From the NCBI GenBank assembly GCA_041659805.1, contig JBAZXP010000001.1:966841-1030840 (forward strand): DNA of 64,000 bases. Direction: 5' to 3'. Shown here piece after piece: positions 6,490-39,243 of the stretch. Source of the DNA: Microgenomates group bacterium. Its GTDB lineage: Bacteria > Patescibacteriota > Microgenomatia > Daviesbacterales > UBA10151. A program made the translations under genes and the position numbers. Positions within the stretch are counted from its first letter, which is position 1. Every line of letters starts with the position of its first letter. The notes beneath the pieces were generated by a model. That model did not search any database and was not told the origin of the DNA. It saw only the letters and a list, made by a program, of their open reading frames with translations.

Positions 6490-7719
6490 TTGCATTTGAC
6501 AACTTTTCTATTCCCACTTACAGTAAATATAGTGATAATTTCCTATTTTAATAAATTTTACCGCACTTTTAACAGAAAAGTTGTAACTGTAATCTTACTT
6601 TTGATTACCTTATCTGCCATAGGACTCGCAGCTTTTTATTATAAAAGTATTAGTGACCTGACTGCTATGGATTTAAGCCTGCAAAAAAAGCTTAGTGAAA
6701 CAAACAAAGAGTTAGCTGATCTAAAAAATGTTGATCAGGTTAAAATTAATCAAAACTTAAACGATGAAATTAAAAATATTAATTCAGGTTATAAAAACTC
6801 AATCTCTGCATATGAGAAAATTACTGATTTAAAAGCTCAAAAGCTGGATACCTCCAAATTAGATCCTAAATATGCCGATGTTGTCAGACTTTTAGCAGAC
6901 AAAAAGTATAGTTCTGCCTCTGCAAAACTGGCAGATTTAAATACAGAAATCGAAAAAGTTACACCAAAAATAGTTGCCAGTGCTGCTCCTCCTGCTGCAA
7001 ATGCCCCACAAAGCAATAATCCACCAGGATCAGGATTTTCCCGTCAGGTGGTTTCAGTAGATGGTCAAAATTATACAGTTGATATTGTTGCAGCTGACCT
7101 TAATTCAACAAGAGTTATTGTTGATACTGCCTCTGATTCTGATTGTAGAAACAATTGCCCGACATTACCTTTAGCCACTTATGTTTCACGCTCAGGAGCT
7201 TTTGCCGGAATTAACGGTTCCTTCTTTTGTCCTGCAGAATATCCAAGCTGTGCAGGCAAAACCAATTCTTTTGATACTTTAGTGATGAACAAAAACAAAC
7301 ATTATTTTAATTCTGACAATAACGTTTATTCCACCCTTCCCTTAGCTGTTTTTTCTGCAGGTTCTGCCAGATTTCTGGGTCAAACTTTAAGCTGGGGCAG
7401 AGATACTGGGGTTGACGGAGTAATTGCCAATTATCCTTTGCTTGTTTCCGGTAATAATATTGTTTTTACCGAAAGCCCAAATGAACCCAAATTTGGCGGT
7501 AAAGGACCAAGAAGTTTTATTGCTAACAAAGGAAATATGGTTTATATGGGTTATGTTTACAGTGCTTCTATGGGTGAATCTGCCAAAGTTATGCGAGCAA
7601 TGGGTTTTGAAAATGCTTTAAATATGGATGAAGGCGGGTCATCTGCTTTGTGGTATGGGGGTTATAAAATAGGCCCAGGCAGAAATATCCCCAACGCAGT
7701 ACTTTTTGTCAGGAGGTAG
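6490..7719 (+). CDS. membrane-anchored protein with C-terminal phosphodiester-glycosidase-like (DUF2233/NAGPA-like) domain
   Basis: N-terminal TM, coiled-coil, then a C-terminal domain with NMDEGGSSALW, resembling the LDGGGSS motif of the phosphodiester glycosidase family. Confidence 0.45.
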   Translation: MHLTTFLFPLTVNIVIISYFNKFYRTFNRKVVTVILLLITLSAIGLAAFYYKSISDLTAMDLSLQKKLSETNKELADLKNVDQVKINQNLNDEIKNINSGYKNSISAYEKITDLKAQKLDTSKLDPKYADVVRLLADKKYSSASAKLADLNTEIEKVTPKIVASAAPPAANAPQSNNPPGSGFSRQVVSVDGQNYTVDIVAADLNSTRVIVDTASDSDCRNNCPTLPLATYVSRSGAFAGINGSFFCPAEYPSCAGKTNSFDTLVMNKNKHYFNSDNNVYSTLPLAVFSAGSARFLGQTLSWGRDTGVDGVIANYPLLVSGNNIVFTESPNEPKFGGKGPRSFIANKGNMVYMGYVYSASMGESAKVMRAMGFENALNMDEGGSSALWYGGYKIGPGRNIPNAVLFVRR

Positions 7720-8272
7720 GAAACCAAAAATGAATGTGCCTTACTTGTTTGAATGTTCCTCTTACCAATTTTGTATCAATATTAATCGGTCTTTCAAATA
7801 AAATTACCTTATCAGGAGTTAGTCTTAAAACAGTCATCACTTTGGCTATAAATTCAGCCGCAATAATCCTTTCTGTTGCCGGACTTGCCAACCAGATTAA
7901 AGATTGATTTAAGTCATCTGGTAACCAATATGGAAATAAATTTGGAGCTGCAGCCATATCAGAAGGTCCCAAAAAATCTTTTACCTGTCTTTCCAAATCT
8001 TCTTTTTTTTGTGCGTGATACCTATTATATTCATCTTCTGTCTTTATAGGCAAAAGTTCCAAATGACGTATTTTATCTCTGTCTTTTAAAAGTGAGTTAA
8101 ACTTTGGATAAATTTTGGGATCAATAATTCCCGGTTTTTTAAATTCTCTTCCCAATAAAATCTCAGGTGGTGTCATAATTCCCAAAACATCATCAATTAA
8201 TTCTTTATCCACAGATATATCCTCCAAATCAGTTGTTCTTAAAATATTTGGAATAAATAAAAGTTCTTTCAT
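7709..8272 (-). CDS. hypothetical protein, C-terminal H-x-H-x-hydrophobic motif (possible HIT/GalT-like)
   Basis: 187 aa ending ...VRHIHFWFPTS; 4-bp overlap with the upstream PurA-like gene implies co-translation. Confidence 0.3.
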   Translation of the reverse strand: MKELLFIPNILRTTDLEDISVDKELIDDVLGIMTPPEILLGREFKKPGIIDPKIYPKFNSLLKDRDKIRHLELLPIKTEDEYNRYHAQKKEDLERQVKDFLGPSDMAAAPNLFPYWLPDDLNQSLIWLASPATERIIAAEFIAKVMTVLRLTPDKVILFERPINIDTKLVRGTFKQVRHIHFWFPTS

Positions 8273-9638: not shown

Positions 9639-10631
9639 CTACAGAAGCCTATATTTAGGCTTATCTGTATCTATCGGACCTAAATTGGTCCCACTATCAC
9701 CTTTAACTAACCTGCCATGCACTGGCACTACTGCGTTCCTGACAGCCAAGATTGTACTCTTACTGACTCCAAACTCTGCCAGGTTTTTCGAACCTGCGTC
9801 AAGATCAGTTGTCCCTTCGGATAAACCGATTTGTAGAGCAATTGTCTCGCAAACAGCCTCAGGATCTTCAAGCTGCAGGACATTTTGTCCTAAAAGCTTT
9901 CTCCAGGAAGCTAAAACTTCCGGGTCTCTCCCATTGCTAGCTGCAGTAGGCAGAATGTAAAAGGTCTCGTATCGTTTTTTCACTTCTTCAAATATCTCAA
10001 CAGTTGAGATATTTTCCTGAAGTGTGTCACCGATCACGTCAGCAACCTCTCTGGCTTTAACATTCGGATAAACCATTTCATCGCCGATAATAAACAAATA
10101 ACCTTTGTGTCTTCGTATATTCCAGCAATCAATGTCCGTATGTCTGGCCATAAAGTAGGTAGCCAACTCATAGCTTTCTGTTTTTTGAGCACCTCCGCCA
10201 CCTTCCAAAAGAATTTTTTCCAAATTCTCATCCATCCTGTTATCAGATTCAAACTGACCAATCTGAAGCGGAACACTGTCGCAGGTTGCGTCCCCAATGG
10301 CACCGAACAAAAACTGTGGATGCTCAGCCCAACCTTTCCGTACTACCAACCCGTTTAATTCCCCCAACTTTTTCTGGAAAATTTGGGGCAGAGTTCTCAT
10401 AGAACCCGTCACATCAAACAGTGTTGCAATGGCTAAAGAATATGCATGTTCTGCACTATCCCGACTTTCACGGAACCTGATACCTTTTGGATCAAGATTC
10501 GGATGAGCTTTCCACTTATCGCGGGAATACCGCTTAGTGTAATCATCATAGTCAAAAACCTTTTTTCCACTGGCTACTCTGGCCTTCTCACGTTCAGAAA
10601 AAACGTCTGTTGTCCATTCACCACCTCCCAT
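9639..10631 (-). CDS. von Willebrand factor A (vWA) domain protein
   Basis: MIDAS motif DVTGSM (DxSGS), downstream GGGGAQ and FIIGDE; likely start is MGGGEW at 10631, preceded by AAGGAGGTGA; the 9639..10673 ORF may be over-extended. Confidence 0.6.
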   Translation of the reverse strand: MGGGEWTTDVFSEREKARVASGKKVFDYDDYTKRYSRDKWKAHPNLDPKGIRFRESRDSAEHAYSLAIATLFDVTGSMRTLPQIFQKKLGELNGLVVRKGWAEHPQFLFGAIGDATCDSVPLQIGQFESDNRMDENLEKILLEGGGGAQKTESYELATYFMARHTDIDCWNIRRHKGYLFIIGDEMVYPNVKAREVADVIGDTLQENISTVEIFEEVKKRYETFYILPTAASNGRDPEVLASWRKLLGQNVLQLEDPEAVCETIALQIGLSEGTTDLDAGSKNLAEFGVSKSTILAVRNAVVPVHGRLVKGDSGTNLGPIDTDKPKYRLL

Positions 10632-11757
10632 TTTTATCACCTCCTTTCGCATTTTTTGGCATACTAAATACATGAAATTTCTTAGGACCCCATAAATCTA
10701 CAATCATAGAATCAAATTCTTCGAGTAATCCCCAGGCATCTTTTGGTCTTTGTTTCGCGGGCAACAAACAACCTCTGAAAAAAGCCTTTATTTTGGGATG
10801 AATATCACTTGGCAATTCCCCTAATTGAGGGTTACCTCCCAAAAGGTAAATCATATTTTTAGCTCCCAGATAAATATCCAATCCGGGACTCACCGGTTCT
10901 TTTTTGAATACTTCAGGCGGATACCAACTCTCCCAGTCACCGGATAGCGCCTGTAACCGTCCGCCTGTTGGATCTTTTTCAATTACAGAATATGACCATT
11001 CATTTATAACCAGTCCGTGTTTTTCCGGTTGGACAAAAAGATTTTGCGGCAGGGCAGCCCCATGAATTAAATTATTTTGATGTGCAAATCCCAACCCTAC
11101 TAATACTCTTCTGAATATCCATGCCATATCTTTTTGATCAATTCCTTTCGGATAAGCGTTTTTTACATCAACAAAAGAAAAAAGCTCATCCGGCCTTTTA
11201 GAAAAAGCATTAATGTTTTTGCGGATATGGTTGCTGTCCTCAAAAATAAAAGAATCAATTAAACCGGGAAAATACGGACGGAAATTATCAAAATTATCTA
11301 CTTCAGCCAATTTGCGAAGCATTTTAGCCTCATTTTCTACAAATTCGTTATCAAGAGGACTTTTTGCAACTTTAAATATGGCTGGAATATTAGTGCCACC
11401 TTCTTTATAGGTAGCCCCATGAACATTGCAAAAATCTGTTTGTGAGAAGGAATCAAAAATTTCATATTCCCTGACTCTGGTTCTGATGGTTAGCAAAACA
11501 TCCGGTGGAATTTGACCATAAGTTCCCAATTTTATTTTTTCCTGAGCTCTTTCCCAAAGCCTGGTCAGATTAATAAAGGCATCTTGAGCCTCTACTCCAC
11601 CATTTAAATCCGGATGAGTGAGCTTGCTTAATTGTCTGTATGTGGAAAGTACAGTTTTCAGAGGGTCGGCTGCTTCGCCTAATCCACCAAAGACATCTTC
11701 AGGATGTTTGGCATTGATAATTTTTTGTGTTATTAAATCTGACTCATTTTCTTTCAT
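10618..11757 (-). CDS. J-domain (DnaJ-like, HPD) fused to a degenerate protein-kinase-like (pseudokinase) domain
   Basis: YRQLSKLTHPDLNGGVEAQDAFINLTRLWE is a J-domain helix II-III with HPD. A kinase-like fold follows: AIFKVAK (beta3 Lys), ENEAKMLRKL (alphaC Glu), LIHGAALPQNLFV replacing HRDLKPEN (no catalytic Asp), no DFG, WYPPE replacing APE. Likely start is the ATG at 11757 preceded by GGAGGA, rather than the GTG at 11775. Confidence 0.55.
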   Translation of the reverse strand: MKENESDLITQKIINAKHPEDVFGGLGEAADPLKTVLSTYRQLSKLTHPDLNGGVEAQDAFINLTRLWERAQEKIKLGTYGQIPPDVLLTIRTRVREYEIFDSFSQTDFCNVHGATYKEGGTNIPAIFKVAKSPLDNEFVENEAKMLRKLAEVDNFDNFRPYFPGLIDSFIFEDSNHIRKNINAFSKRPDELFSFVDVKNAYPKGIDQKDMAWIFRRVLVGLGFAHQNNLIHGAALPQNLFVQPEKHGLVINEWSYSVIEKDPTGGRLQALSGDWESWYPPEVFKKEPVSPGLDIYLGAKNMIYLLGGNPQLGELPSDIHPKIKAFFRGCLLPAKQRPKDAWGLLEEFDSMIVDLWGPKKFHVFSMPKNAKGGDKNGRW

Positions 11758-11763
11758 GTTGTA

Positions 11764-11826
11764 AGTGTCCTCCACACACTAACTATAGTGTAACTATTAC
11801 ACAAAGGTTAGTGTTTTGTCAACACC
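11764..11826. promoter_or_regulatory. three tandem palindromic operator-like sites AGTGT-N7-ACAC(T/A/C) at 11764, 11787 and 11810 (23-bp phasing), overlapping the RBS/start and a TTGACA -35 on the minus strand
   Basis: AGTGTcctccacACACT (perfect), AGTGTaactattACACa, AGTGTtttgtcaACACc; the third spacer is the reverse complement of TTGACA, followed by a TGTGTAATAG-like -10. Confidence 0.5.
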
Positions 11827-12124: not shown

Positions 12125-15100
12125 TTAACGTAGAATACTATCAATAGTGTGATCCACTAAAATCCTTTGTCTTCTATCCCCTATTTTGGGCAGAATAACT
12201 CTTTTGCAGACATCTTTTACATTTGCAGCATGATTCATACGAAGTGCAATATTGACCATTTCCCGAAGAGAGGTTGTAAAATCCATGGGTTCATTAGATT
12301 CACCAACTTGATATGCCTGATACATCCTTCGAAGGTCATTAGCTACCCTGATTGCATCATATAACCTTCTGACATCTTTTTCTAAATTTGCGTTGGCTTT
12401 AAGGAGCATATCTCCTCCATTGGTGGTATCTCTGTTTATAATATAATCCCAGGCTTGTTTAAATTCCTTTTGTTGTAAACTTTCTAAAACATGAACATAT
12501 GAAAACAACATTTCAGCCTCATCACTTCTATAATAAGTTCTTCCATTTCTTGGTTCTTCAAATGGAGGATAAGCAACCTCTATAATATCTCCTCTGGAAA
12601 GAATTGTTTCAGCTAATTTATCTACACCTGCATAGTCCTGAGGATTCATAGTACCTGCTAAAATAACTGTCGGATCAGCAATAACTTCATGCTGCACTCC
12701 ACCTTCATTAACAACCAACTTCCTTCTATAATCAAATAACGGATTTAACATTTTTACAATTCCCGGTTTGACTGTATTAATTTCATCAAACAGAATAATT
12801 GCCCCCGGCTTTTGTAATGCTTCTATTAAACGTGAAGGTAATTTATAAGTTCCTTTATCAGGATCATAATAAAATTCATAGGTTAAATCTTCTTTTGCTG
12901 TATTTTCATTACAAGCAATCGTCACAACTTCCCTATTGGAAAGATTAGCCAATACATCTATTAATACATTTTTCCCTGTTCCTGCTTCTCCTTCTAAAAT
13001 AGTAATCCCCATATGATTATCCATTTGGATATTCAGGCTCTCTGCTAACTCTTCCAGTTTTTTATTTTGATATTCAGATATTTTCCATCTGTCATTATAT
13101 TCAGGAACTTCCCTTTTTAAGCCTTTGAAATGATCTTCTGCCTCTTTTCTGTGTCTTTCGATCATACGAGCAGTATCTTCAAAGTTTAAATCAGGTATAA
13201 CCGGCGTCCTATGATCTGGACTTGGATGCCAAAGTCTACCTTGTTCATCCTGAAATGCTAAATCAGCATGCATGGCTCCGGCAATCGGAAGTAAAACAGG
13301 CCTCCATAAACGGGGCGGCTCTTTATAAACCGGAAAGCTAACTTGACCAAACTTTAATTCTCCTGTATCTCCAACAACACCCAACTCTTTTCTGTGTTCA
13401 ATATCCTTTTTGCGTGCACCCATCACTACTTCCAATTTTTTCTCTTCGATTTCACGAAGTTCAGGTGGTAAGGCAAAAATCTTGGCTCTCCAGGCAGTAA
13501 CCAAAGGATTTCTGTCAAACCTATCTAATTCTCTTGTATCTGAAAGCTCTGTAATTTGCTCCCTTAATGAAGCCAAATCTTCTTTGGCCTCTTCTACTAA
13601 CTGAGCCCATCTTAAACGTTGTTCCTCTTCCAGCTGCCTGCCTCTGGATTCAAGCTGAGATCTTTGTTCAGATTTGATAATATTTAGCTTGTCCCTAAGC
13701 TCTTTTCTTACCTGTGGGTCCCGGACATTTGCCAACATCATCTCAAATTGTTGTGCTTCAATTGTAGTTCCAAACATTGCCAACTCCTGAGAAGAACCAG
13801 TTTCTTTAATAAGCTGTTCTATATTAGGAAAGGCACCTTGGATTGCATCAGATAATTCTTGTTGGTATTGTCCAACAACCATTTCCTTTTTAGCTTGTAT
13901 CGATCTTAACCTCTGTTCTATATTTCTGCGGGTTGCAGGATCAGTAACATCTGTTTTTTGACGAAGCTCCAAAAGTCTGGCAAATTCTTCGTCCAAACCG
14001 ATCGTATCCCCCATACTTTTTACCTCCGTTATTGATTTTTCATATTCGGCAAGTTGATTATCAAATTCAGCTGTCCTAATCCCACTCAACTTTTCTCTGG
14101 CCTTACTAATAAATTCATCTACTACTTCACCATATGCCTGGTTTGCAGGATCTGCTTTAAGACCCTGAAGCCTATCCATAATCTCTTCAATTGCTTCCGG
14201 GTCGGTTGTTTGAACTAAGGGTTCATCGACTTGTCTGGCGATTGCTTCACGTAAGGTATTCGCAACATCCTCTTCAGAAATTCCATTACCTTTTTGTTTT
14301 TGAACTCTTTTAAGTTCCAAAGATGCAAACCTTTCCTGCATTTCACGAAGTTGTTCTTCTCTTTTTTCATGAGCTAACTCGCTACCACCTGTAGGAATAG
14401 CCTGAAAATTTGTTTGTATTTCTCTTAATTTATTTTCAGTATCAACATATAAAATATCTCCTTGTTTATCGACCAAAATTGGCCCTAAAACATTATTGAA
14501 TTCCTTAACTACCTCTCCAGATTCTTTATCAATGATTGATAGTTTTTGGCCAGATCTGACAATGAAAAAATTAACATTCGGATCAATCTCTATTTCTTCG
14601 GGATTCTCAACTCTTATTTGAGCTTCAAGCAAAGGCCGAGCACTTCTATCCGCTACCCCATTCAAATCCAGGCTATATATTCCTCCAGTATTAATAAAAT
14701 AGAGCTTACTTTGATCATTTGGGTCTAAAGTTGGCTTAGAACCACTAAAGCTAGCCAGCTCCTTTCCATCTGAACCATTTATTTTGAAAAAATGCGCTTC
14801 CTCTTTAAGTGTTAACTCTCCTATAAGTTTTGCTGACGGATCAATAAGTTGACTAAACACTTCATTAGTAACTGTCTTTTTAGTCGCAGGTTGTGTAGGA
14901 TTAATAAAAAAATAGTTTTCTTCGGTTTGAAAAATAAAGCCAGTCGTATTTTTTTCAGGAACCTTTCGAATCTTCATTTCCCATTTTCCGACAGGAATAA
15001 AAAATTCAGCGTTTTTTCTAACATCTGTCTTATCCATCATAAAGCCATATTCTGCTCCATAGCGTGTTCCTAACTGATTTTTAGCGATTTTACGCCAAGT

Positions 15101-15499
15101 AGTCTGAATTGTTTCCTGCGCTGCTTTTTTGGAAAAACCTATTTTTCTAAGCAAGTAACTAAAATCGTCTGAATAATCATTAGTTTTATCAACTGCTATG
15201 TAAGTTCTACTATTCGCATCAGCTATATCATAGGTTGTAGGGTCTAGATGAACTCTTGAGAGATTACCCAGACCATCAAACATTAAAGCTTCATAATGAT
15301 TTTCGATTTTAGACAAAATCCCGACTACTTCATCGATCTTTTTTATATCCTGTACTTCTCCTACTAATCGTTCCTTGAATCTTTCTTCAGGCAAAAGCTG
15401 AGTCTCTACTGTTTGAGCCAAAAGACTTCTTTGAACCAATATTTTTTCTTCTTCTTTCATATTATAGGGTATTTTACGCTTTTCATAATCAAATTTCAA
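12125..15499 (-). CDS. giant coiled-coil protein with C-terminal MoxR/AAA_5-type AAA+ ATPase domain
   Basis: 1124 aa. The N-terminal ~330 aa look like beta-rich repeats and ~450 aa are heptad-rich coiled coil. C-terminal AAA+ motifs: GEAGTGKNV Walker A (GKN variant), ILFDEINTVKPGIVKMLNPLFD (MoxR-like DEINRA Walker B region), AGTMNP sensor-1. Confidence 0.6.
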   Translation of the reverse strand: MKFDYEKRKIPYNMKEEEKILVQRSLLAQTVETQLLPEERFKERLVGEVQDIKKIDEVVGILSKIENHYEALMFDGLGNLSRVHLDPTTYDIADANSRTYIAVDKTNDYSDDFSYLLRKIGFSKKAAQETIQTTWRKIAKNQLGTRYGAEYGFMMDKTDVRKNAEFFIPVGKWEMKIRKVPEKNTTGFIFQTEENYFFINPTQPATKKTVTNEVFSQLIDPSAKLIGELTLKEEAHFFKINGSDGKELASFSGSKPTLDPNDQSKLYFINTGGIYSLDLNGVADRSARPLLEAQIRVENPEEIEIDPNVNFFIVRSGQKLSIIDKESGEVVKEFNNVLGPILVDKQGDILYVDTENKLREIQTNFQAIPTGGSELAHEKREEQLREMQERFASLELKRVQKQKGNGISEEDVANTLREAIARQVDEPLVQTTDPEAIEEIMDRLQGLKADPANQAYGEVVDEFISKAREKLSGIRTAEFDNQLAEYEKSITEVKSMGDTIGLDEEFARLLELRQKTDVTDPATRRNIEQRLRSIQAKKEMVVGQYQQELSDAIQGAFPNIEQLIKETGSSQELAMFGTTIEAQQFEMMLANVRDPQVRKELRDKLNIIKSEQRSQLESRGRQLEEEQRLRWAQLVEEAKEDLASLREQITELSDTRELDRFDRNPLVTAWRAKIFALPPELREIEEKKLEVVMGARKKDIEHRKELGVVGDTGELKFGQVSFPVYKEPPRLWRPVLLPIAGAMHADLAFQDEQGRLWHPSPDHRTPVIPDLNFEDTARMIERHRKEAEDHFKGLKREVPEYNDRWKISEYQNKKLEELAESLNIQMDNHMGITILEGEAGTGKNVLIDVLANLSNREVVTIACNENTAKEDLTYEFYYDPDKGTYKLPSRLIEALQKPGAIILFDEINTVKPGIVKMLNPLFDYRRKLVVNEGGVQHEVIADPTVILAGTMNPQDYAGVDKLAETILSRGDIIEVAYPPFEEPRNGRTYYRSDEAEMLFSYVHVLESLQQKEFKQAWDYIINRDTTNGGDMLLKANANLEKDVRRLYDAIRVANDLRRMYQAYQVGESNEPMDFTTSLREMVNIALRMNHAANVKDVCKRVILPKIGDRRQRILVDHTIDSILR

Positions 15500-15503
15500 A
15501 TAT

Positions 15504-17771
15504 TTACTGAAGGTATCGTTTAAATTGAATTAAGCAGGTTCTGAGTAATCTAAAGGCTTCATCAGGCAAATCCTCAAATTTTTCCGGATAAGCACAATTG
15601 CTTTCACCAAAATATAAGTTTAAATAATTTTGTATCTGTTGTCTTTCATTCGCATTTCCGGATAATCCAAAAGCTTTAAAGGTAAGTCTGCCTCTGTTTT
15701 CTTCAACATAGTCCCGCAAATCATCCCCTGTCAAACCTTGATTAGCTCCTCCGTCTGTGATTACCACAATTAATCCGTGCGAATCTGTGTATCTCCTTCT
15801 TCCCTCATTCATTCCTTCAATAACCAACTCAATTCCTGCATGAATGTCAGTGCTGTTATCTACAGCCTCTGTATAATCAATAATTGCAGGCTTAACCCGC
15901 TCAGAAGGGTTATCAAAATCCTGCTGAAAATCTTTAATTACAACCGCGTCTTCACCAAAGGCAACACCCATAAATGGTATCCCCATATCCTTACAAACTT
16001 CAGAAAAAAAGATCATGGTCTTACGGGCCTGCGCTTGTTTGCTTTTCATCGAATAACTTTTATCTGCTACCAGACCAATAAATAATCTTGGTGCTCCTGT
16101 TGGCCTTTCTATCTGCCTTAAATGAAATCTTTCATCATTCATGGGTGCCCGGCGGACGATCTCCCGTCTATCAAATTTCGGACCGCTAAAAAATTCGCCT
16201 TCATATCTGCCTTCACCTTTTCTGGGGATTACTTTTTCAATTGCCTGTCTGAAATTCCTGATATTGGAATACATACTATCTTCTAAAGTTTTATAAATTA
16301 AATACTTTTCCCGCTCATGTTCCGGATCAAAACCAGCCTGTTCCATATCTAATTTTTCACGCCTTAAACTTTCTGTTTGTTTACGCAAGTCTTCCTGTTG
16401 ACGGTATGTACTTTCTGTCGCTTCAGCTTCAGCTCTCTCCTCTGCCTCCACCTCATTCACAATTTTCTGATACTCACCGGCAGCGTTATTTTGTTGATTT
16501 TCATCTGCCAATTGAGGCTGTCTTTCATATTCTCCTGTATCATTATTCTTCTCCAATTTAGCAGTTTTATTTAAATCCTCCTCTAAGGCTTCTTTTTGTG
16601 CCTCATCGATAATTTCTCTTGACTTTTTCTCTAAAGCTTCTCTTTCTGCAGAGGGAAGTTGATCTATTGCTTCTTGCAGTTCCTTTAATTGTTCATCAGT
16701 AAATTGTGATAAATCAGTCCTTTCCTGTTTATTAACATTCTGGTTTTGTTGCGGTTTTTTTTCTCCGGTGAGAGCCTGTTTAATTCTGTCCATAAATCCT
16801 TGCATTCCGCCTTTTTTGCCTTCACTTTGCCCAGACTGACCTTGATTTTTACCGCCGGGAATACTTGGTACTGCCGCACCTTCTCCTTGTCCTTCTCCTG
16901 CTGATTGACCACCCCCGGACGACTGACCTTGCCCTTGCCCTTGCCCCTGTCCCTTCATGCCTTTTTGTTGTGCCATTTGACGCTTTTCCTCATCTTTTAT
17001 ATCTTTTTTTTCTAAAACCTTAGCAATATCCCAAATTTTATATTGTAAAAGTTTTCTTTCTTCAACATCCGTGTTATTAAAGTATTGATCCAAAAGAGGT
17101 GCTGCTACTTCCCCTAATTTACCCACTTCTGTATTCGCCAGCTCGGGAATTCCTGTTCCATGAAGTGCCCTATGGAAAGATTCATAAGCAAACTGCAACA
17201 TATATGGTCTGTCTTTTAAAGGAGTTTCTGTAATTCTTTCCTGAAGATCTTTACCTTGATTTTCCTTAATCATTTTGTCTATTGCAGGAGACTCTTCACC
17301 CTCAAGATTATTAATTCTGGGATCTTCTATCCCTTCCCAGGTTAACCAGAAACTTGTAGGCAAGTTTCCATCATCTGTTGCCTTCCTCTGTCCCTCATAC
17401 ATCAACCTGAAATCTGTGTATTTTGCATGACCTGCTTCATGATGAAGAATGGTATCAATTTCCTCCCAATTCATATCCTGAGCAGACTCAGCATCATAAA
17501 GAATTTGTTTTGCTCTAAAAGACTCAGGAGGCAGATCATCCAGAGTTTCTCTTTTGCCCTGAATATATTTTATGATTTCATTATTCACCTTAGGGTCTAA
17601 AGAGGTGGCCCAAACACCCTTGTTTCTGGAAGGAATAACTGCAATATCATATCTTCTGGCAAAAACTCTCCCCATATGAGCGATAAGTTTATTTTTTTCG
17701 AAGCGAAGATGCTCGGCTTTTTGTGCCGATTCTTCTGGGTCGCGCCGTAAAAAAAACTCTGCTTCTATCAT
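15504..17771 (-). CDS. HExxH (zincin-like) - low-complexity/coiled-coil - C-terminal vWA domain protein
   Basis: ILHHEAGHAKYTD (HExxH with a downstream Glu), (GQ)n tract, long coiled-coil, C-terminal MIDAS LVADKSYSM...VVITDGGAN; 4 bp upstream of the MoxR-type gene, as in a MoxR/vWA partner arrangement. Confidence 0.55.
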   Translation of the reverse strand: MIEAEFFLRRDPEESAQKAEHLRFEKNKLIAHMGRVFARRYDIAVIPSRNKGVWATSLDPKVNNEIIKYIQGKRETLDDLPPESFRAKQILYDAESAQDMNWEEIDTILHHEAGHAKYTDFRLMYEGQRKATDDGNLPTSFWLTWEGIEDPRINNLEGEESPAIDKMIKENQGKDLQERITETPLKDRPYMLQFAYESFHRALHGTGIPELANTEVGKLGEVAAPLLDQYFNNTDVEERKLLQYKIWDIAKVLEKKDIKDEEKRQMAQQKGMKGQGQGQGQGQSSGGGQSAGEGQGEGAAVPSIPGGKNQGQSGQSEGKKGGMQGFMDRIKQALTGEKKPQQNQNVNKQERTDLSQFTDEQLKELQEAIDQLPSAEREALEKKSREIIDEAQKEALEEDLNKTAKLEKNNDTGEYERQPQLADENQQNNAAGEYQKIVNEVEAEERAEAEATESTYRQQEDLRKQTESLRREKLDMEQAGFDPEHEREKYLIYKTLEDSMYSNIRNFRQAIEKVIPRKGEGRYEGEFFSGPKFDRREIVRRAPMNDERFHLRQIERPTGAPRLFIGLVADKSYSMKSKQAQARKTMIFFSEVCKDMGIPFMGVAFGEDAVVIKDFQQDFDNPSERVKPAIIDYTEAVDNSTDIHAGIELVIEGMNEGRRRYTDSHGLIVVITDGGANQGLTGDDLRDYVEENRGRLTFKAFGLSGNANERQQIQNYLNLYFGESNCAYPEKFEDLPDEAFRLLRTCLIQFKRYLQ

Positions 17772-17859: not shown

Positions 17860-18378
17860 ATGATTTCCTTAGATTCAGAAGTCCGACAAACCACTCTTCA
17901 TACCAAAGGTACCTCCCAAAGACATGTTGCAGAAACTCTGGCCAAAGTTGCAGGTTTCCCAAATGGTAGTGTAATCTTGCAGGCAATAGATATTGAAAGA
18001 TTTTTTCCTTTTGACCACAAAAAAGAAGAACTGGCTAAAAACAGTTTTTGTATTGTGGGATTTCATAAGAACAACCCTGGTAAACCCGGGAAATACACCA
18101 ATAGAACAGGGGCACCAGATTTCCAGGTAACAGAATTGGTGGGTCAAAAAGGTCTTCCCTCACCTACTTACTTGATAGAAATTAACTCCACCATTGATGA
18201 AAATGTACTAAGCAAATTGGAAGCAGAGATTATCGAATCAAGCCAAAAGAGACCCTTTCTTGCAAAATTATTTCGCCGTTTACCTAAAAACCCTGATTTT
18301 GTTTATAGTGGATACAGATCCAAAAGCCCGTTGGTTCTGGACTTGGACTACCCAATCGCTCCCGTACAAAGCAGATAA
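17860..18378 (+). CDS. hypothetical protein
   Basis: 172-aa ORF divergent from the HExxH-vWA gene; no motif. Confidence 0.35.
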   Translation: MISLDSEVRQTTLHTKGTSQRHVAETLAKVAGFPNGSVILQAIDIERFFPFDHKKEELAKNSFCIVGFHKNNPGKPGKYTNRTGAPDFQVTELVGQKGLPSPTYLIEINSTIDENVLSKLEAEIIESSQKRPFLAKLFRRLPKNPDFVYSGYRSKSPLVLDLDYPIAPVQSR

Positions 18379-18989
18379 TGTACTTACATTTCAGTGATTG
18401 GTCTCATTTAAAAAATAGTTTAGATGAAAAAGGAATTCCGCATGGGAATAAAATTATTAAAATATATGCAGGTGAAAACGATCCAAGAGTAATACTTAAA
18501 AGACAAAATCTTTTTACCATAGAATCTGATGGAAAGCCTTTTAGGCCGAATGAGATTTTCCACTATGAGAATCGGAAAAGTTATACAGGATCTGAGTTAG
18601 AAGAAAAATTAAATAGTTTAGGACTAGATGAAGTTGCAAAACCACGGCTCCGGGCTTTATTTCGTTTTAGCAATTTACCGGAGATTCAATCAACTCAGGA
18701 CATGATGGCAACAAAAAACCCTGACGGTAGTTGGAAATATAACGATCCTTTTGAAGATATCGATGGTATTGAATTAGCTCTTAGAGTACCACAAAGAAGG
18801 ACTACCCTTCATGCTGATATTTTTTACGAATCAACATTACAGAGACTTAAGGATTTTTTTGCAAAAAATAGTTTTAATATAGAAGACCCTGAAAGTTTTG
18901 TGTCTTATAACAAAGAACTAATAGGTTTGCTAAATAAGGAAAACAAAAAACCAATTGAAGGATCTCCCAATAAACCTGAAGGCAATTAA
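18378..18989 (+). CDS. hypothetical protein
   Basis: 203-aa ORF, TAATG overlap with the preceding gene; no motif. Confidence 0.35.
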   Translation: MYLHFSDWSHLKNSLDEKGIPHGNKIIKIYAGENDPRVILKRQNLFTIESDGKPFRPNEIFHYENRKSYTGSELEEKLNSLGLDEVAKPRLRALFRFSNLPEIQSTQDMMATKNPDGSWKYNDPFEDIDGIELALRVPQRRTTLHADIFYESTLQRLKDFFAKNSFNIEDPESFVSYNKELIGLLNKENKKPIEGSPNKPEGN

Positions 18990-19028
18990 TATTTGACTTT
19001 TTTGGGTTTTCAGCGTATCTTTGTGTGT

Positions 19029-19721
19029 ATGAGTGACACTATCAAACTTCCGGAAAAATATAATTTGAACGATTATCAGTGCCCTTCTGTAACTGTTGAT
19101 ATCCTTGTTTTTACAATCGAAGCTTCTGAACTAAAAGTATTACTCATCAAACGGGCAATCGAGCCTTTTAAAGACGAATGGGCTTTACCGGGAGGATTTA
19201 TAAAGATGGATGAATCCTTAGAAGCAGCAGCCTTAAGAGAATTAGTACAGGAAACAGGTGTAAAAAATGTTTATTTGGAACAACTTTATACTTTTGGGGA
19301 TACCAACAGAGATCCCAGAAGCAGAGTTATTACTGTTGCCTACTTCGCTCTTGTTCCAAGCGCTAAATTGGATTTGAAAGCATCAACAGACGCAGCTGAT
19401 GTGGCCTGGTTCCCTATAAAAAAACTTCCCAAATTAGCTTTTGATCACAAAAAAATTATTGATTATGCAATGAACAGACTAACAAGCAAGATTGAATATT
19501 CTAATATTGTATATGGATTACTTCCGATTAAATTCCGTCTAAGTGAGTTGCAAAAGGTATATGAAGTTATTTTAAGTAAAAAGATGGATAAAAGAAATTT
19601 CCGTAAATGGATACTTTCCTTAGGGTTACTTGAAGCCACGGGAGAAAAAGACACTGATGGCGCCCACAGACCTGCAGAACTTTTTAAATTTAAAAAAAGA
19701 GAACCAGTTCTATTTGACTAA
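19029..19721 (+). CDS. nrtR: Nudix-related transcriptional regulator (NrtR-like): N-terminal Nudix domain and C-terminal helical/winged-helix-like region
   Basis: Near-canonical Nudix box GGFIKMDESLEAAALRELVQETGV (one Glu to Gln change) followed by an ~80-aa C-terminal domain containing KRNFRKWI; sits next to a full NAD salvage operon. Start is the ATG at 19029; the ORF track uses TTG at 18993. Confidence 0.5.
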   Translation: MSDTIKLPEKYNLNDYQCPSVTVDILVFTIEASELKVLLIKRAIEPFKDEWALPGGFIKMDESLEAAALRELVQETGVKNVYLEQLYTFGDTNRDPRSRVITVAYFALVPSAKLDLKASTDAADVAWFPIKKLPKLAFDHKKIIDYAMNRLTSKIEYSNIVYGLLPIKFRLSELQKVYEVILSKKMDKRNFRKWILSLGLLEATGEKDTDGAHRPAELFKFKKREPVLFD

Positions 19722-19768: not shown

Positions 19769-20473
19769 TCATTGAGCCTTACCATAAATCTCAATGATTC
19801 TTGGAATTTCTCCAATGCTGATAATCTTAGCTCCAGCTTCTTCCATCTCTAATAAGGCCTGCTTTGCTCCTTCTGGAGTAATACCTGATATTGCATCTTC
19901 TACGATGTACGTCTGTATACCGCGCTTTTGCATCCCTACGACTGCAGCCAGATCACAATACTCAGTCGCAACATAATAAACAATAGCTGCTCTTACTCCT
20001 GCTTCTTTGAGAACAGTTTCAACAGCAGGGTTTGTAAAAACATCATAATGTTGTTTTTCAAAGATTATATCTTTGCCTGATCTTGCAATCTCTGCCAACT
20101 CATCTGGACTATAACGTCTGAAGTTGTCTCCCTCAGCAATCTTATTTTCAACAATTAAAGCTGAATCAGATGCTACTTCAGGAATAAAATCTATGCCAAA
20201 TGTTCCGTCTTCATTTAACTGATTGTATTTCCAATCCATGCAATGAAGCGGAAAAGGGCCTCCGTTATCGATAAGCTCAGGATCATCCATAAAATGTCTG
20301 TCCCTACTCTTAAATCTCCTGATACCTGCATCTTTTAGCATTTTTCCGACAGAAGCAGCATTTTCTCTGATTTCTTCAGCACCAGGAACGTATAATCTTC
20401 CGTCATTTTTTCTCATGAAATCATTCTGTGCATCAACTTCATAACCTATTAATTCTTTTGACATTTTTCTCAC
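19769..20473 (-). CDS. pncA: nicotinamidase/pyrazinamidase (isochorismatase-like cysteine hydrolase)
   Basis: LIGYEVDAQNDFM N-terminal signature and ~230-aa isochorismatase-family length, in an NAD salvage operon. Confidence 0.65.
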   Translation of the reverse strand: MRKMSKELIGYEVDAQNDFMRKNDGRLYVPGAEEIRENAASVGKMLKDAGIRRFKSRDRHFMDDPELIDNGGPFPLHCMDWKYNQLNEDGTFGIDFIPEVASDSALIVENKIAEGDNFRRYSPDELAEIARSGKDIIFEKQHYDVFTNPAVETVLKEAGVRAAIVYYVATEYCDLAAVVGMQKRGIQTYIVEDAISGITPEGAKQALLEMEEAGAKIISIGEIPRIIEIYGKAQ

Positions 20474-20479
20474 CTCCCT

Positions 20480-21385
20480 TCAAGGTAAAATTGCAACTCT
20501 AAGCGGGTGTTCGTGAGCTACAGAGATACTGACTTTACTTCCTTCTTCAAGGTTGAATGAAAAACTATCGTCACTTGGATCAGGATCAAAATCTATTTCT
20601 GTATCTTTCCCTAGAGAAAAAATTGTTAACTCCTCACCTAAATCCAAATCCCCAATTTCCAAAAATCCTGAATCAAGATCTTTTTCTCGGCAAACAAAAC
20701 GGGCATGAGGGGCAGTTCTGGGAAAATGAGAATATTTTTCCATAACTTCATCTTTCCAGTGTCCGACAATATTTCTGTACCAACCTGTAAGCCCTGAACC
20801 TGTGGCAATAACCAAACCGGAATTTTTTTGCTCGTCATTTATTCCGCGATAATTAATAATACTTCTGCTAATCCCTCTGTTTTTCAATTCACCGACAAAG
20901 ATTTCTGATAGAGCAAAAAACGGCAAAAGCTCTCCGTCTAAAACTGCCTGTAATCTTGTCCATTTTTCTGTTTCAAAGGAATTTTTATCCAGACAATCAC
21001 GGAGGTAGTCAATATGTTCAGGTTTAAAAGACAAAATCCCACCTTTAGAAGTTTCCGGATCAGAATTTATTCCAACAACCAGCTGGTCTCCGGTCACAAA
21101 ACGTGACACATATTGCAAATGATTATCTCCTCCGGGACTAAAAATAATGTTATATTTTTTAGCGACATCTACATTAAAATCATCGCGGTGGATTATTGGC
21201 ACGTTTAAAGCTTTGCCTAATTTTTCAATGTTCTCTATCTGTCTGTAATGACTGGCAATTTTTTTATCAGCATCTGCCCCCTGCTTTTTCCACAAATTAA
21301 TCTGATCCTGCATAGAAATATTGGAAGTTTTCATTTTCCATTCAACTACAGTGAGTTTTGGTACGATTACAGCCTCAACGCTCAT
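20480..21385 (-). CDS. nadK: NAD kinase-like (ATP-NAD kinase family, divergent GGDN motif)
   Basis: IIFSPGGDNHLQY (vs GGDGT), VVGINSDPETSKGGILSF (vs NxGxLGFL), ATGSGLTGWYRN (vs SGSTAY). Confidence 0.5.
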   Translation of the reverse strand: MSVEAVIVPKLTVVEWKMKTSNISMQDQINLWKKQGADADKKIASHYRQIENIEKLGKALNVPIIHRDDFNVDVAKKYNIIFSPGGDNHLQYVSRFVTGDQLVVGINSDPETSKGGILSFKPEHIDYLRDCLDKNSFETEKWTRLQAVLDGELLPFFALSEIFVGELKNRGISRSIINYRGINDEQKNSGLVIATGSGLTGWYRNIVGHWKDEVMEKYSHFPRTAPHARFVCREKDLDSGFLEIGDLDLGEELTIFSLGKDTEIDFDPDPSDDSFSFNLEEGSKVSISVAHEHPLRVAILP

Positions 21386-22320
21386 TTTATAAATCTCCTT
21401 TTCCCGATATAATCTTTAATGAATCGATTATGATCAAACGCTAGATTATCAGGTATTTGATCCCAAGGGAATACTTTAATATCAACGGCATCATCACCAG
21501 CTCTTAAGACTCCTCCATCAATCCTTTTTTCATAAACCATAGTGACGTAGTGACCTCTCGGATCTCTATCGGGATCTGAATATTGTCTGAATTGATCTTC
21601 TAAGGAAACTTCAATATCAAGATTTGTTTCTTCTTTTGCTTCCCTAACAGCAGCACCTTCAACAGTTTCCTTTCCATAATTAATATAACCTCCGGGGATT
21701 GCCCATTTTAAGGAATTCGGATCGCCTAATTTTTCTTTTCTCTGGATTAAAACAATACCCTCATCTCTATAATTAAGAATTACATCTGCTGTAACTGCAG
21801 GGTTTAGAAAACGCTCCCTACCGCTGATGCGCTGCTCTCCTTTGATCTTTTTTAGATGAGCAATCACTTCTTCTGGTACCAGGTCTTCCCACTCTCCACC
21901 GTTTTTAATCATTTCCCGAACATCTGTTGCGCAAATCGGTAAATCATGTATCGGCTTTCTGATTTCAATCCCGTATCCGTCAAATATTCTGCTTACCCAA
22001 TTATTTCCTGTGTAAACTATGCTGAATCTTTCAGGACTAAGGATATCGATTAGCTTTCTCCATTTTTCATCATTGTAAACATCGGGAATACCGAAAACTG
22101 CAAATGGTTTTTCCATTCTCTTTTCCAGAGTTGCTTTAATCATTTGCAAGCGTTCATTAAAACTGAAAGGGTTGTGCTCTGTATTGCCTTCCTGAGAAGA
22201 TCCAATTCCGATTAATATTTTTGCAACATCTGGTGCTCTTTCAATTTGTTTGACAACAGAAAGATGCCCCAAGTGAAATGGTTGAAATCTACCTACAACT
22301 AATGCATTTTCTTGTTTCAT
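21382..22320 (-). CDS. nadM: bifunctional NadM-type NMN/NaMN adenylyltransferase with C-terminal Nudix (ADP-ribose pyrophosphatase) domain
   Basis: ALVVGRFQPFHLGH (archaeal-type NMNAT HxGH) plus C-terminal Nudix box AIPGGYINYGKETVEGAAVREAKEETNL; likely start is MKQENAL at 22320. Confidence 0.75.
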   Translation of the reverse strand: MKQENALVVGRFQPFHLGHLSVVKQIERAPDVAKILIGIGSSQEGNTEHNPFSFNERLQMIKATLEKRMEKPFAVFGIPDVYNDEKWRKLIDILSPERFSIVYTGNNWVSRIFDGYGIEIRKPIHDLPICATDVREMIKNGGEWEDLVPEEVIAHLKKIKGEQRISGRERFLNPAVTADVILNYRDEGIVLIQRKEKLGDPNSLKWAIPGGYINYGKETVEGAAVREAKEETNLDIEVSLEDQFRQYSDPDRDPRGHYVTMVYEKRIDGGVLRAGDDAVDIKVFPWDQIPDNLAFDHNRFIKDYIGKRRFIK

Positions 22321-22324
22321 TTTT

Positions 22325-23953
22325 TTACCTCCTAAATTCATGACTAATCGGGATTCTTCTACCAATACCGAATGATTTCGGAGTAACTTTTATGCCGGGA
22401 GCAGCTTGTCTTCTTTTGTGTTCATTACGGATAATTAAATCCCAATATTTTTCGACCAACGGACGTGGGTATTCTTTTAAAACTTCTTCTATAGTTGCCC
22501 TATCCTCTATTAAACGATTTACAATTGGCACAATCAGGTCATAATCGGCTCCAAGGCTCCCTTCATCTGTTTGATTCTCACTAAGCTCTGCTGAAGGCTC
22601 TTTAATAATTGAATTTCGGGGAATCACTTTTCTATAAAGATTAGCCAACTCATAAACTTTTAATTTATCAACGTCAGATATAGCAGCCAGGCCTCCTGCC
22701 ATATCTCCATAAAGGGTACAGTAACCAAGCGCTGTTTCTGTTTTATTTCCTGTGCTGATTACTAAAGCATTTTCCTCATTTGCCTGTGCCATTAAAATCA
22801 TTCCCCTGATTCTTGCCTGAATATTTTGATTAGTTAAGTCTTTTGGATCTTTTTGCAAAACTTGTGATATTTCACCAACTAAAGTTTTTCGTGTTTCTTC
22901 GATCGGAATGATCTGAAAATTAATCCCTAAATTTTCAGATAGTTTTCTTGCGTCATCCACACTTCCGGAACTTGAAATTCTGGATGGCATTGTAATACCT
23001 GTTACGTTTTCTTTGCCCAAGGCTTGAGTTGCCAAAGCAGCTACTACTGCTGAATCGATCCCCCCAGAAAGTCCAATAAAAGCCTTATTAAAATTTGATC
23101 TTCTGAAGTATTCTTTAATCCCTAAAACCAAAGCCTTATTTAATTGATCAATTGAATCAGTATTCTGAGGTAATATTTCCTTTGGATTATCCAAATCTAC
23201 TTTAACGCTATCTTCCTCAAACGCCTTCCCCAGACCTAATAATTTTCCATCTGCCCCTAAAACTATACTTTGACCGTCAAAAACCAATTGTCCGTCATAA
23301 CCGTCCTGTGAGCCAACTAAATTGGTATAGATAAAAGGCTTTTTGTATGTGTTAACAACTCTTTCAATAAGATTTTTTCTGACATTAAATTTATCTAGAT
23401 AAAATGGAGAAGCAGAGATATTTATTAAAACATCTGCTCCTTTTTCAACCAACTCAGATGTAACATTTTTTTGATAACCATTACTCCAAAGGTCTTCACA
23501 AATTTCTATACCTAATTTCTTTCCACAAACTTCATATAATTTGTGTGACCTGTTGGCAGAAAAATATCTGGTTTCATAAAAAACATCATAGGTTGGCAGA
23601 AGTGTTTTATCTTCTATTCCCAAAATTTTTCCATTTTGTAAAATCGCTGCGCTATTAAATCTGATTGGTGTGCCATCAGGCCCAATGATATTTGGGTCTG
23701 AATCAACAAAACCCACAATTGCTGTAATTCCTTCTGTTGCGGCAACAATCCGAGATAAAGCTTCTTTATTTTGAGAAATATAATCAGAATAAAGCAACAA
23801 ATCCATAGACATATATCCTGGGATTGTCAGCTCTGGAAAAACTATCAAATCAGATTTGTTTAATTTTGCCTGCTCAATATAAGAAATTATTTTTTGGGTA
23901 TTTTTTTCTATACACCCAGGATCTGTATTAATTTGTGCAAGTTCTAATTTCAT
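22325..23953 (-). CDS. nadE: glutamine-dependent NAD+ synthetase (nitrilase domain + NAD synthetase domain)
   Basis: N-terminal CN-hydrolase domain (FPELTIPGY), C-terminal GLSGGIDSAVVAALA PP-loop; 542 aa. Confidence 0.8.
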   Translation of the reverse strand: MKLELAQINTDPGCIEKNTQKIISYIEQAKLNKSDLIVFPELTIPGYMSMDLLLYSDYISQNKEALSRIVAATEGITAIVGFVDSDPNIIGPDGTPIRFNSAAILQNGKILGIEDKTLLPTYDVFYETRYFSANRSHKLYEVCGKKLGIEICEDLWSNGYQKNVTSELVEKGADVLINISASPFYLDKFNVRKNLIERVVNTYKKPFIYTNLVGSQDGYDGQLVFDGQSIVLGADGKLLGLGKAFEEDSVKVDLDNPKEILPQNTDSIDQLNKALVLGIKEYFRRSNFNKAFIGLSGGIDSAVVAALATQALGKENVTGITMPSRISSSGSVDDARKLSENLGINFQIIPIEETRKTLVGEISQVLQKDPKDLTNQNIQARIRGMILMAQANEENALVISTGNKTETALGYCTLYGDMAGGLAAISDVDKLKVYELANLYRKVIPRNSIIKEPSAELSENQTDEGSLGADYDLIVPIVNRLIEDRATIEEVLKEYPRPLVEKYWDLIIRNEHKRRQAAPGIKVTPKSFGIGRRIPISHEFRR

Positions 23954-25125: not shown

Positions 25126-25166
25126 TTTTTATTTTTCCTTTCTTGTTTATGTATTTTTATAAATGT

Positions 25167-26815: not shown

Positions 26816-26877
26816 AGTGTCTTTCTTACACTTACTTAGTGTATGATATACCCTTTAGTTAGTGTTGTCAATACACT
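26816..26877. promoter_or_regulatory. promoter of the pnuC-nadR-pncB-nadE-nadM-nadK-pncA operon with three tandem AGTGT-N7-AC(A/C)CT operator-like palindromes (22-23 bp phasing)
   Basis: AGTGTctttcttACACT (26816-26832), AGTGTatgatatACcCT (26838-26854), AGTGTtgtcaatACACT (26861-26877). The third spacer is TTGACA on the coding strand, a TATCAT -10 lies inside the second box and the first box sits at the presumed TSS. Confidence 0.5.
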
Positions 26878-36037: not shown

Positions 36038-36039
36038 AA

Positions 36040-36447
36040 TTAATTAATCTCGTTCCAACTGGATACTGTAAAAACATGCCCGGAAAAAGTACCAACAACC
36101 TGAATTTTCCGCCTAAAATTACCCATTACACCTTCTGAAACAATGGTTTTTGTTGTTGTACCGCTAACTGTAATTGTAACAGTTCCAGACCCTACACTAA
36201 AAGTCTCACCTGTGTAGTTGGGGTTTCGGAGCAGCCTTAAAACTGCATTGTCAGCACCTGTTTGGGCAAGTAAATAAGAATTTTCACCAATCTCAACTTT
36301 ACTGGTAGCTTCTGAATTAATTATTGTCACAGCCACAGCCCCCGTAACCACGGTTATGGCAATTACCATAAAAACTAACAAAGTAATCAAAGTCTGACCC
36401 TTTTCCTTGACTCTTAATTCTGTATTTTTAAATCTTAAATCTTTCAT
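36040..36447 (-). CDS. pseudopilin-like protein (atypical leader)
   Basis: KGQTLITLLVFMVIAITVV N-terminal hydrophobic helix but no Glu at +5. Confidence 0.4.
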   Translation of the reverse strand: MKDLRFKNTELRVKEKGQTLITLLVFMVIAITVVTGAVAVTIINSEATSKVEIGENSYLLAQTGADNAVLRLLRNPNYTGETFSVGSGTVTITVSGTTTKTIVSEGVMGNFRRKIQVVGTFSGHVFTVSSWNEIN

Positions 36448-39240: not shown

Positions 39241-39243
39241 AAC

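Follow-up and report, generated by a model that had tools for sequence, protein, structure and literature searches.

A J-domain pseudokinase is one component of a widespread vWA/PurA-like module that shares predicted NrtR-type operators with NAD-salvage genes

We analysed a 64,000-nucleotide (nt) window of a Microgenomates group bacterium (positions 966,841 to 1,030,840 of contig JBAZXP010000001.1, assembly GCA_041659805.1), which contains a gene whose product joins an N-terminal J domain to a kinase fold that has lost its catalytic residues. This protein, here termed J-pseudokinase, is encoded directly upstream of a von Willebrand factor type A (vWA) protein with a metal-ion-dependent adhesion site (MIDAS) and of a divergent enzyme of the adenylosuccinate-synthetase family (PurA-like); we refer to these genes as the cassette. 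Far from being peculiar to the candidate phyla radiation (CPR), the uncultured, small-genome bacteria from which the window derives, the J-pseudokinase is one component of a widespread module, which is conserved as an operon across phyla and is also borne by phages. On the best explanation, the J-pseudokinase represents an accessory third subunit of a system whose obligate core consists of the MIDAS vWA protein and the divergent PurA-like, GTP-dependent ligase. Regarding its function, we favour an adaptor that does not phosphorylate but links the vWA/PurA-like pair to DnaK, a reading to which we assign a probability of roughly 45%.

The AlphaFold2 (AF2) model of the J-pseudokinase reached a mean predicted local distance difference test score (pLDDT) of 92.1 and a predicted template modelling score (pTM) of 0.79. 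A database search returned an identical protein on record from a Microgenomates group bacterium metagenome-assembled genome (P0001). An alternative GTG start at position 11775 finds no support among the homologues. A word-indexed search retrieved 27 relatives, and an exhaustive hidden Markov model (HMM) search of clusters at 50% identity yielded 4,224 matches at E ≤ 1e-3, of which 1,537 reached E ≤ 1e-30. Full-length proteins made up most of the top 150 clusters; a few were truncated or devoid of the J domain. Family frequencies given below refer to 175 aligned sequences, comprising the close relatives and the best 148 representatives of the exhaustive search.

An earlier note, made from the letters of this DNA alone, had described an N-terminal J domain with the HPD tripeptide, and this description holds. 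Searching the Protein Data Bank (PDB) with phmmer, we matched the J domain of a DnaJ and that of CbpA (3lz8, E = 2.7e-4), while the family profile matched DNAJC3 (E = 4.7e-6). Alignment of the segment from helix II through HPD to helix III with the J domain of E. coli DnaJ by hhalign gave a probability of 86% (E = 4.9e-6). Taken by itself, the window protein stayed under the curated cut-off of the Pfam DnaJ model (E = 0.004, 17.7 bits versus 27.8 bits), but 10 of the 27 close relatives matched this model at E ≤ 0.01, the best of them at 5.9e-8. In the AF2 model, HPD is flanked by helices 32-47 and 55-77, forming the expected hairpin of helix II, HPD and helix III; helix II is basic, and helix III carries the conserved Phe/Leu. 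The signature YRxLxKxxHPD...AFxxL is likewise retained. Across the 175 sequences, the three HPD positions are occupied by H in 161, by P in 150 and by D in 162 cases. Judged by these sequence comparisons and the predicted structure, the N-terminal domain is a real J domain, beyond chance similarity.

For the remainder of the protein, a kinase-like domain with the β3 Lys, the αC Glu and an APE-like WYPPE segment had been proposed, and all three features are borne out. The fold is recognised by sequence, with phmmer matching CaMK1G in the PDB (E = 1.7e-6) and the family profile matching SRPK2 from the Gly-rich loop to the catalytic loop (E = 8.5e-9). It is also recognised by structure: a Foldseek search with the AF2 model returned about 2,000 protein kinases, led by GRK2, PLK1, PKR and MerTK, with Aurora A, PknA, VRK3 and BubR1 lower in the list, and most of the top kinases showed a target-normalised TM score of about 0.7 and E values of about 1e-10. 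The hallmarks of the eukaryotic protein kinase (ePK) fold, K129 (in the motif AIFKVAK), E143 (NEAKMLR), the APE Glu E282 (WYPPE, residues 278-282) and the αF Asp D294, are conserved. Among the 175 sequences, the β3 position is K in 152 and R in 10, the αC Glu is present in 171, the APE Glu in 153 and the αF Asp in all 175.

Catalytic residues, by contrast, have been lost. As the earlier note had pointed out, LIHGAALPQN (residues 230-239) stands where HRDLKPEN is expected, and the HRD position reads H in 173, G in 167 and A in 157 sequences, whereas its Asp occurs in 0 of 175. The catalytic-loop Lys is replaced by Leu, Ile or Val (Leu in the window protein), and the catalytic-loop Asn is His in 126 and Asn in 39 sequences. 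The Gly-rich loop follows the pattern x-G-D-(I/L)-(C/A)-(D/N) in the family, and in the window protein it is degenerate, acidic and without Gly (T-D-F-C-N). A canonical DFG is indeed lacking, as had been stated, but a degenerate triplet, E253-W254-S255, aligns at its place. The first DFG position is D in 121, E in 19, N in 18 and G in 15 relatives, the next residue is W in 167, and the commonest form of the triplet is D-W-(S/C/T). Together, HGA for HRD, Leu for Lys, E-W-S for DFG and the T-D-F-C-N loop set the protein apart from active kinases, and a kinase fold in which the loss of a catalytic residue is itself conserved family-wide corresponds to the definition of a pseudokinase. On alignment and modelling grounds, the domain is thus a pseudokinase, albeit one in which the Lys-Glu pair and the acidic character of the DFG position are preserved.

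Two other readings of this domain have to be weighed here. WNK, SelO and CASK are precedents for relocated catalytic residues, and the protein could similarly be an atypical active enzyme, i.e., a protein or small-molecule kinase or another transferase. The retained Lys, Glu and Asp/Glu residues fit such an activity, as do the matches of relatives to small-molecule kinase models (APH for 7/27, Kdo/WaaP for 2/27), the invariant H232 and H247 near the active-site region and the database name 'serine/threonine kinase' of relatives. However, the HRD Asp is absent throughout, the catalytic-loop Lys position is hydrophobic and the Gly-rich loop is degenerate; moreover, the database names are automated, and H232, along with H226, corresponds to a structural His of ordinary kinases. 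We therefore regard an active enzyme as improbable. According to the second reading, the kinase-like domain would sense a nucleotide or metabolite (ATP, GTP, ADP-ribose or NAD) and act as an allosteric switch on the vWA/PurA-like pair, in the manner of the ATP-binding pseudokinases JAK JH2, HER3 and STRADα, with the J domain being secondary. This reading overlaps in part with that of an adaptor. Since the Lys-Glu pair and the acidic or amide DFG residue are conserved, the domain could be a nucleotide-binding switch and not an inert scaffold; the frequent His or Asn at the catalytic-loop Asn position and the predicted control of the module by an ADP-ribose-responsive repressor family point in the same direction. 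Against it, only one Gly is left in the Gly-rich loop of the family and none in that of the window protein, and the conserved Asp of this loop would clash with nucleotide phosphates. Overall, a sensor appears unlikely, if less so than an active enzyme.

The gene downstream had been called a vWA gene, and the AF2 model (pLDDT 87, pTM 0.86) shows an unambiguous vWA fold. Foldseek matched it to integrin and von Willebrand factor A domains with E values of 1e-5 to 1e-6, and the MIDAS residues D73-x-T75-x-S77 are invariant in its homologues. By sequence, the protein matched nothing in Pfam, NCBIfam or PDB, and its identification came from structure prediction only. Its start is placed at the ATG at 10631 because the resulting N-terminus, MG(S/G)GxW, is conserved in homologues and a Shine-Dalgarno sequence, GGAGGTGA, lies 5 nt upstream. 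The previously reported 14-nt overlap with the J-pseudokinase stop (10618-10631) is consequently real. The vWA protein is unusually conserved, with about 55-60% identity between the CPR window and Actinomycetota loci (proteins P0028-P0147), and contains two characteristic loops, the acidic GQFESDNRxDE and GGGG, as well as a disordered tail with R-L/I at its end. Such conservation exceeds what a passive adaptor would call for. A C-terminal R[LIV] was found at 71/84 loci with, and at 5/13 loci without, a J-pseudokinase (Fisher p = 9e-4, with the kinship of loci ignored), a suggestive association of this tail with the presence of the J-pseudokinase. In many cluster C1 mycobacteriophages, the vWA gene was matched as two pieces over about 1.6 kb (e.g., CharlieB, NC_054717.1, 151512-153092, and Yassified, OR613471.1); an annotated 'HNH endonuclease' beneath the split match suggests an intein or homing-endonuclease insertion.

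The third protein aligns with E. coli PurA such that GD.GKG, the catalytic His, Q224 and the guanine-specifying Asp are kept. It scored 177-189 bits against the NCBIfam purA models, for which the equivalog cut-offs are about 400, and an identity as PurZ of the 2-aminoadenine pathway was rejected (55 bits versus a cut-off of 300). The L-aspartate loop, TTGRRRR in E. coli, is changed to a family-conserved aromatic xxW(Q/M)xxFR. Positions N38, T129 and R143 of E. coli PurA, which bind the phosphate of inosine monophosphate (IMP), also differ. A replaced aspartate loop combined with altered IMP-phosphate residues suggests different substrates, and the PurA-like enzyme may act on substrates other than IMP and aspartate.

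An open reading frame (ORF) of 187 amino acids (aa) overlaps the end of the PurA-like gene and shares 72% identity with the gene at the same position (193 aa) in the close relative L094; the gene at this position in the close relative L095 encodes 195 aa. Searches of Pfam, NCBIfam, PADLOC, PHROG and PDB returned no match, and no similarity was seen to the same-position gene of a Rhizobium phage. The C-terminus, ...RHIHFWF, resembles a HIT motif. This ORF may be a lineage-specific fifth component of the module.

To follow the cassette across genomes, loci were gathered via the vWA alignment, ORFs were called in the best 80 species loci and these were searched by HMM for the four module proteins; 75 of the 80 had enough flank for counting. 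The arrangement nrtR - J-pseudokinase - vWA - PurA-like was complete and co-directional in 64/75 species loci, with a median gap between J-pseudokinase and vWA of about 20 nt (66 loci). Hosts were mainly Actinomycetota (Streptomyces, Kitasatospora, Actinoplanes, Micromonospora, Frankia), along with Chloroflexota and one Terriglobales (Acidobacteriota) genome. Separate look-ups placed the triad of J-pseudokinase, vWA and PurA-like genes in CPR and Chloroflexi loci as well. In the window, the vWA and PurA-like genes are adjacent and co-directional and scored 516 and 660 bits against the respective HMMs. Relatives of the vWA partner number more than 7,110 and occur in at least 594 GTDB species.

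The triad is also found on mobile elements, namely on plasmids of Rhodococcus, Tsukamurella and Variovorax and in 202 Mycobacterium phage records (Bixzunavirus, cluster C). In phage Bread, gp257, annotated as 'serine/threonine kinase', carries HPD, V-H-G-A and D-W-C; the vWA protein is gp258, followed by a 'PurA-like adenylosuccinate synthetase' as gp259. According to a genome announcement, the gp257 and gp259 phams are among those conserved in all C1 phages.

In relatives, genes for an ADP-ribosylglycohydrolase and a NADAR-domain protein adjoin the cassette, and stand-alone NUDIX hydrolases directly follow the PurA-like gene (coordinates of these ADP-ribose-related genes: L009 10556-11596; L004 13297-13815; L091 8407-9039; L096 9373-10020). 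In a Rhizobium phage, the neighbourhood of the vWA/PurA-like pair includes a phosphoribosyltransferase-like gene and one for an NMN adenylyltransferase/NUDIX protein.

How might these proteins act together? We propose that the J-pseudokinase would function as a class C (type III) J protein, whose client-binding part is a kinase domain unable to transfer phosphate. The pseudokinase lobe would dock the translationally coupled vWA protein, possibly via the disordered C-terminal ...R-L tail of the latter, and/or the PurA-like enzyme, and the HPD-bearing J domain would trigger ATP hydrolysis by DnaK. Hsp70 could then assemble, remodel or activate the vWA/PurA-like complex. By analogy to CbbQO and NorQD, in which vWA adaptors couple MoxR AAA+ ATPases to enzymes, Hsp70 would take the place of MoxR. 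The recruitment of DnaK, the physical contact between J-pseudokinase and vWA protein and the remodelling role are inferred.

The scaffold proposed in the earlier note, which would recruit and activate DnaK rather than phosphorylate, agrees with this proposal insofar as the architecture fits a non-phosphorylating J-domain protein. Several observations, however, weigh against an adaptor to Hsp70. Exact HPD occurs in 114/148 diverse representatives and is degenerate in the other 34, with HED, HAD and YPD recurring and HSD among the other variants. In P0255, P0288 and a Variovorax member, a zinc ribbon stands in place of the J domain. With 23% of the representatives lacking an exact HPD and zinc-ribbon members in the family, activation of Hsp70 is not a universal function. 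In addition, the conserved Lys129, Glu143 and Asp/Glu253 hint at ligand binding over pure scaffolding. Nine of the 75 species loci (12%) contain nrtR - vWA - PurA-like without a J-pseudokinase, and in phages of Vibrio and Rhizobium (about 200 kb) the vWA/PurA-like pair occurs alone. These loci and phages indicate that the pair is the core of the module and the J-pseudokinase a frequent third component. No dnaK was found in the 64-kb window or the fetched loci, which is uninformative because the window covers 64 kb of a 1.13-Mb contig.

The degenerate HPDs and the zinc ribbons would also suit a J-like fold that serves as a structural or interaction module without engaging Hsp70. On the other hand, the window protein and most relatives keep the H, P and D residues together with the basic residues of helix II, and conservation of this kind is a hallmark of functional J domains. 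We consider a purely structural role improbable, and retain the adaptor to DnaK as the preferred reading.

The promoter of the cassette provides a link to NAD metabolism. The 367-bp spacer upstream of the J-pseudokinase gene contains the most promoter-like sequence of the region (TTGACA-18-AATAGT, extended by TG), and two predicted NrtR-type operators overlap its -10 (11793-11798) and its -35 TTGACA (11817-11822) elements. The underlying palindrome, GTGTW-N5-WACAC, has exact matches in the window only at the promoters of the cassette and of a NAD-salvage operon (19769-26794, minus strand; pnuC-nadR-pncB-nadE-nadM/Nudix-301 aa-pncA). This operon is complete, and its nadR product is a NadR-like NMNAT/RNK. 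Allowing at most one mismatch to the palindrome, 12 sites were counted versus 4.4 expected, and 0/100 shuffles reached 12. NrtR operators share a core of GT-N7-AC (PMC2330246), which the palindrome contains. Other loci, Chloroflexi included, show the same palindrome ahead of the cassette, of nrtR and of pncA. The cassette thus shares predicted NrtR-type operators with the NAD-salvage operon.

A gene for NrtR itself, consisting of a NUDIX and an NrtR winged-helix domain, lies 7 kb from the cassette and is presumed to encode its repressor. In the close relative L094, the gene order is nrtR - J-pseudokinase - vWA - PurA-like - 193 aa - pncA - pncB - nadM, and in L095 the cassette follows pncA - pncB - nadM in a single operon. 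With the module on a promoter presumably repressed by NrtR, alongside NAD-salvage genes, its induction would be expected when ADP-ribose accumulates. The 301-aa gene of the NAD operon is weakly NAD-kinase-like, is conserved in the NAD operons of relatives and shares 37% identity with an L095 gene. Among the NrtR targets listed by Rodionov 2008 are the uncharacterised nrtX-nrtY of Streptomyces and Frankia, which may or may not be genes of the module.

A wider, doubtful interpretation is that the cassette constitutes an undescribed NAD+/ADP-ribose-linked pathway in which the J-pseudokinase harnesses the host DnaK. The PurA paralogue with its rebuilt substrate loop and the MIDAS protein would use GTP to rebuild or repair an adenine dinucleotide. 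The substrate would be, e.g., ADP-ribose or deamino-NAD, and NrtR would switch the cassette on as ADP-ribose rises. Large phages (about 200 of cluster C, and those of Rhizobium and Vibrio) would employ the cassette to counter NAD-depleting immunity.

Table 1 Location of the cassette, its domains and motifs, and the associated regulatory elements in the window.
Feature	Coordinates	Strand	Details or basis
187-aa ORF	7709..8272	minus	overlaps PurA-like stop by 4 nt; conserved in close relative L094
Divergent PurA-like (adenylosuccinate-synthetase family) enzyme, 436 aa	8269..9579	minus	Pfam Adenylsucc_synt 1.6e-68
vWA/MIDAS protein, 330 aa	9639..10631	minus	start overlaps J-pseudokinase stop by 14 nt
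J-pseudokinase coding sequence	10618..11757	minus	ATG start, 379 aa; ORF list and sequence; AF2 pLDDT 92
Kinase fold without catalytic Asp, residues ~86-360	10678..11502	minus	alignment, profile, AF2, Foldseek, family frequencies
Degenerate catalytic loop H232-G-A-A-L-P-Q-N239, replacing HRDLKPEN	11041..11064	minus	CaMK1G alignment and family frequencies
J domain, residues ~1-82	11512..11757	minus	helices 5-15, 19-23, 32-47, 49-52, 55-77
HPD tripeptide H48 P49 D50	11608..11616	minus	CAT CCG GAT in sequence
Cassette promoter with two predicted NrtR-type operators	11788..11825	minus	GTGTAACTATTACAC 11788-11802, GTGTTTTGTCAACAC 11811-11825
nrtR (NUDIX and NrtR winged helix)	18993..19721	plus	Pfam NrtR_WHD 6.7e-25, NUDIX 4.2e-22
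Predicted triple NrtR-type operator and promoter of NAD-salvage operon	26817..26876	minus	same motif architecture as cassette

Between nrtR and the cassette, two large genes (12125-17771, minus strand) encode a vWA protein of 755 aa and a protein of 1124 aa that ends in an AAA_5 ATPase domain of the MoxR/dynein type. Their N-terminal regions are long and match no family, and the 755-aa vWA protein has a Gly/Gln-rich low-complexity stretch. As the two genes are adjacent to the J-pseudokinase and on the same strand, the latter might be thought to belong to a vWA-MoxR system with them. However, the pair was rejected as a partner of the cassette, since it is absent from all other loci examined, including L005 and L094, which are 64-69% identical, and the 367-bp spacer with its own operator-bearing promoter parts it from the cassette. 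Membership of the J-pseudokinase in such a system is accordingly very improbable, and the two genes are probably an inserted vWA-MoxR system.

Elsewhere in the window, ORFs at 35018-40290 had been suspected to be dnaK/grpE/dnaJ and turned out to be type IV pilus genes; the pilus cluster (36447-40290, minus strand) encodes a platform protein of the T2SSF/PilC type and three proteins whose N-termini bear the methylation motif of pilins. Directly upstream of nrtR, two ORFs of 172 and 203 aa (17860-18989, plus strand) matched neither Pfam nor NCBIfam. A known defence system was rejected as context of the cassette, as PADLOC gave weak generic kinase matches only (MkoA, 2.5e-6; Mad6; PD-T4-6) and none for the partners.

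Automated names of the relatives range from 'molecular chaperone DnaJ' and 'J domain-containing protein' to 'serine/threonine-protein kinase', 'InaA family kinase' and 'hypothetical', and PHROG 3043 is labelled 'kinase'. In the full-text literature, with subscription papers covered incompletely, we found no published study of the J-pseudokinase or the module; mentions were confined to phage genome announcements naming 'serine/threonine kinase' and 'PurA-like' phams. Taken separately, J-domain proteins and pseudokinases are well known. Their bacterial or phage fusion is undescribed in the literature searched, and so is its constant association with a vWA protein and a PurA paralogue under predicted control of the NAD regulon. 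The chemistry of the module could be new. As the family is present in tractable organisms (Streptomyces, Rhodococcus, M. smegmatis phages), its study could uncover a so far unrecognised route by which Hsp70 is directed to a metabolic enzyme, a reaction new to the adenylosuccinate-synthetase fold and possibly a new player in the contest of phage and host over NAD+.

Among known systems, the TerY-P triad of vWA protein, Ser/Thr kinase and PP2C phosphatase resembles the module in that a vWA gene adjoins a kinase-family gene. Here, however, the kinase is inactive, and PurA-like and NrtR are present instead of a phosphatase. No phosphatase was found in the gene tables of 13 inspected loci; for the 80 genome loci, the search was confined to the four proteins of the module. 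The module thus shows the composition of neither TerY-P nor vWA-MoxR systems. In contrast to CbbQO, NorQD and the Mg-chelatase BchI/BchD, the conserved module lacks an AAA+ protein and the proposed ATPase is Hsp70 in trans, so that the resemblance is one of analogy and not of homology.

Pseudokinases devoid of the HRD Asp (JAK JH2 with 'HGN', ILK, HER3, VRK3, BubR1) likewise combine a bilobal ePK fold and retained Lys/Glu residues with loss of the catalytic base. The J-pseudokinase differs from them in being bacterial or phage-borne, in pairing a single such domain with a J domain, in residing in a metabolic operon and in its more degenerate Gly-rich loop. GAK/auxilin-2 is the best-known protein uniting kinase and J domain and recruits Hsc70 to a defined assembly. 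In GAK, an active kinase occupies the N-terminus and the J domain the C-terminus, and PTEN-like and clathrin-binding regions are present; no homology to the J-pseudokinase was seen beyond the two generic domains.

In its architecture, the J-pseudokinase resembles class C J proteins such as E. coli DjlA, CbpA and HscB, which join an HPD-bearing J domain to a specialised client or targeting domain not found in DnaJ and from which local recruitment of Hsp70 is expected. It departs from them in that its partner domain is a kinase fold and the HPD is degenerate in a quarter of the family; we know of no bacterial J protein with a kinase-fold partner domain. The 'serine/threonine kinase' of Bixzunavirus, a cluster C1 mycobacteriophage (PHROG 3043), finally, is a true homologue. 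It is annotated as an active kinase, is about 29% identical to the window protein and has the same architecture, with HPD, HGA and DWC, and the same vWA and PurA-like neighbours.

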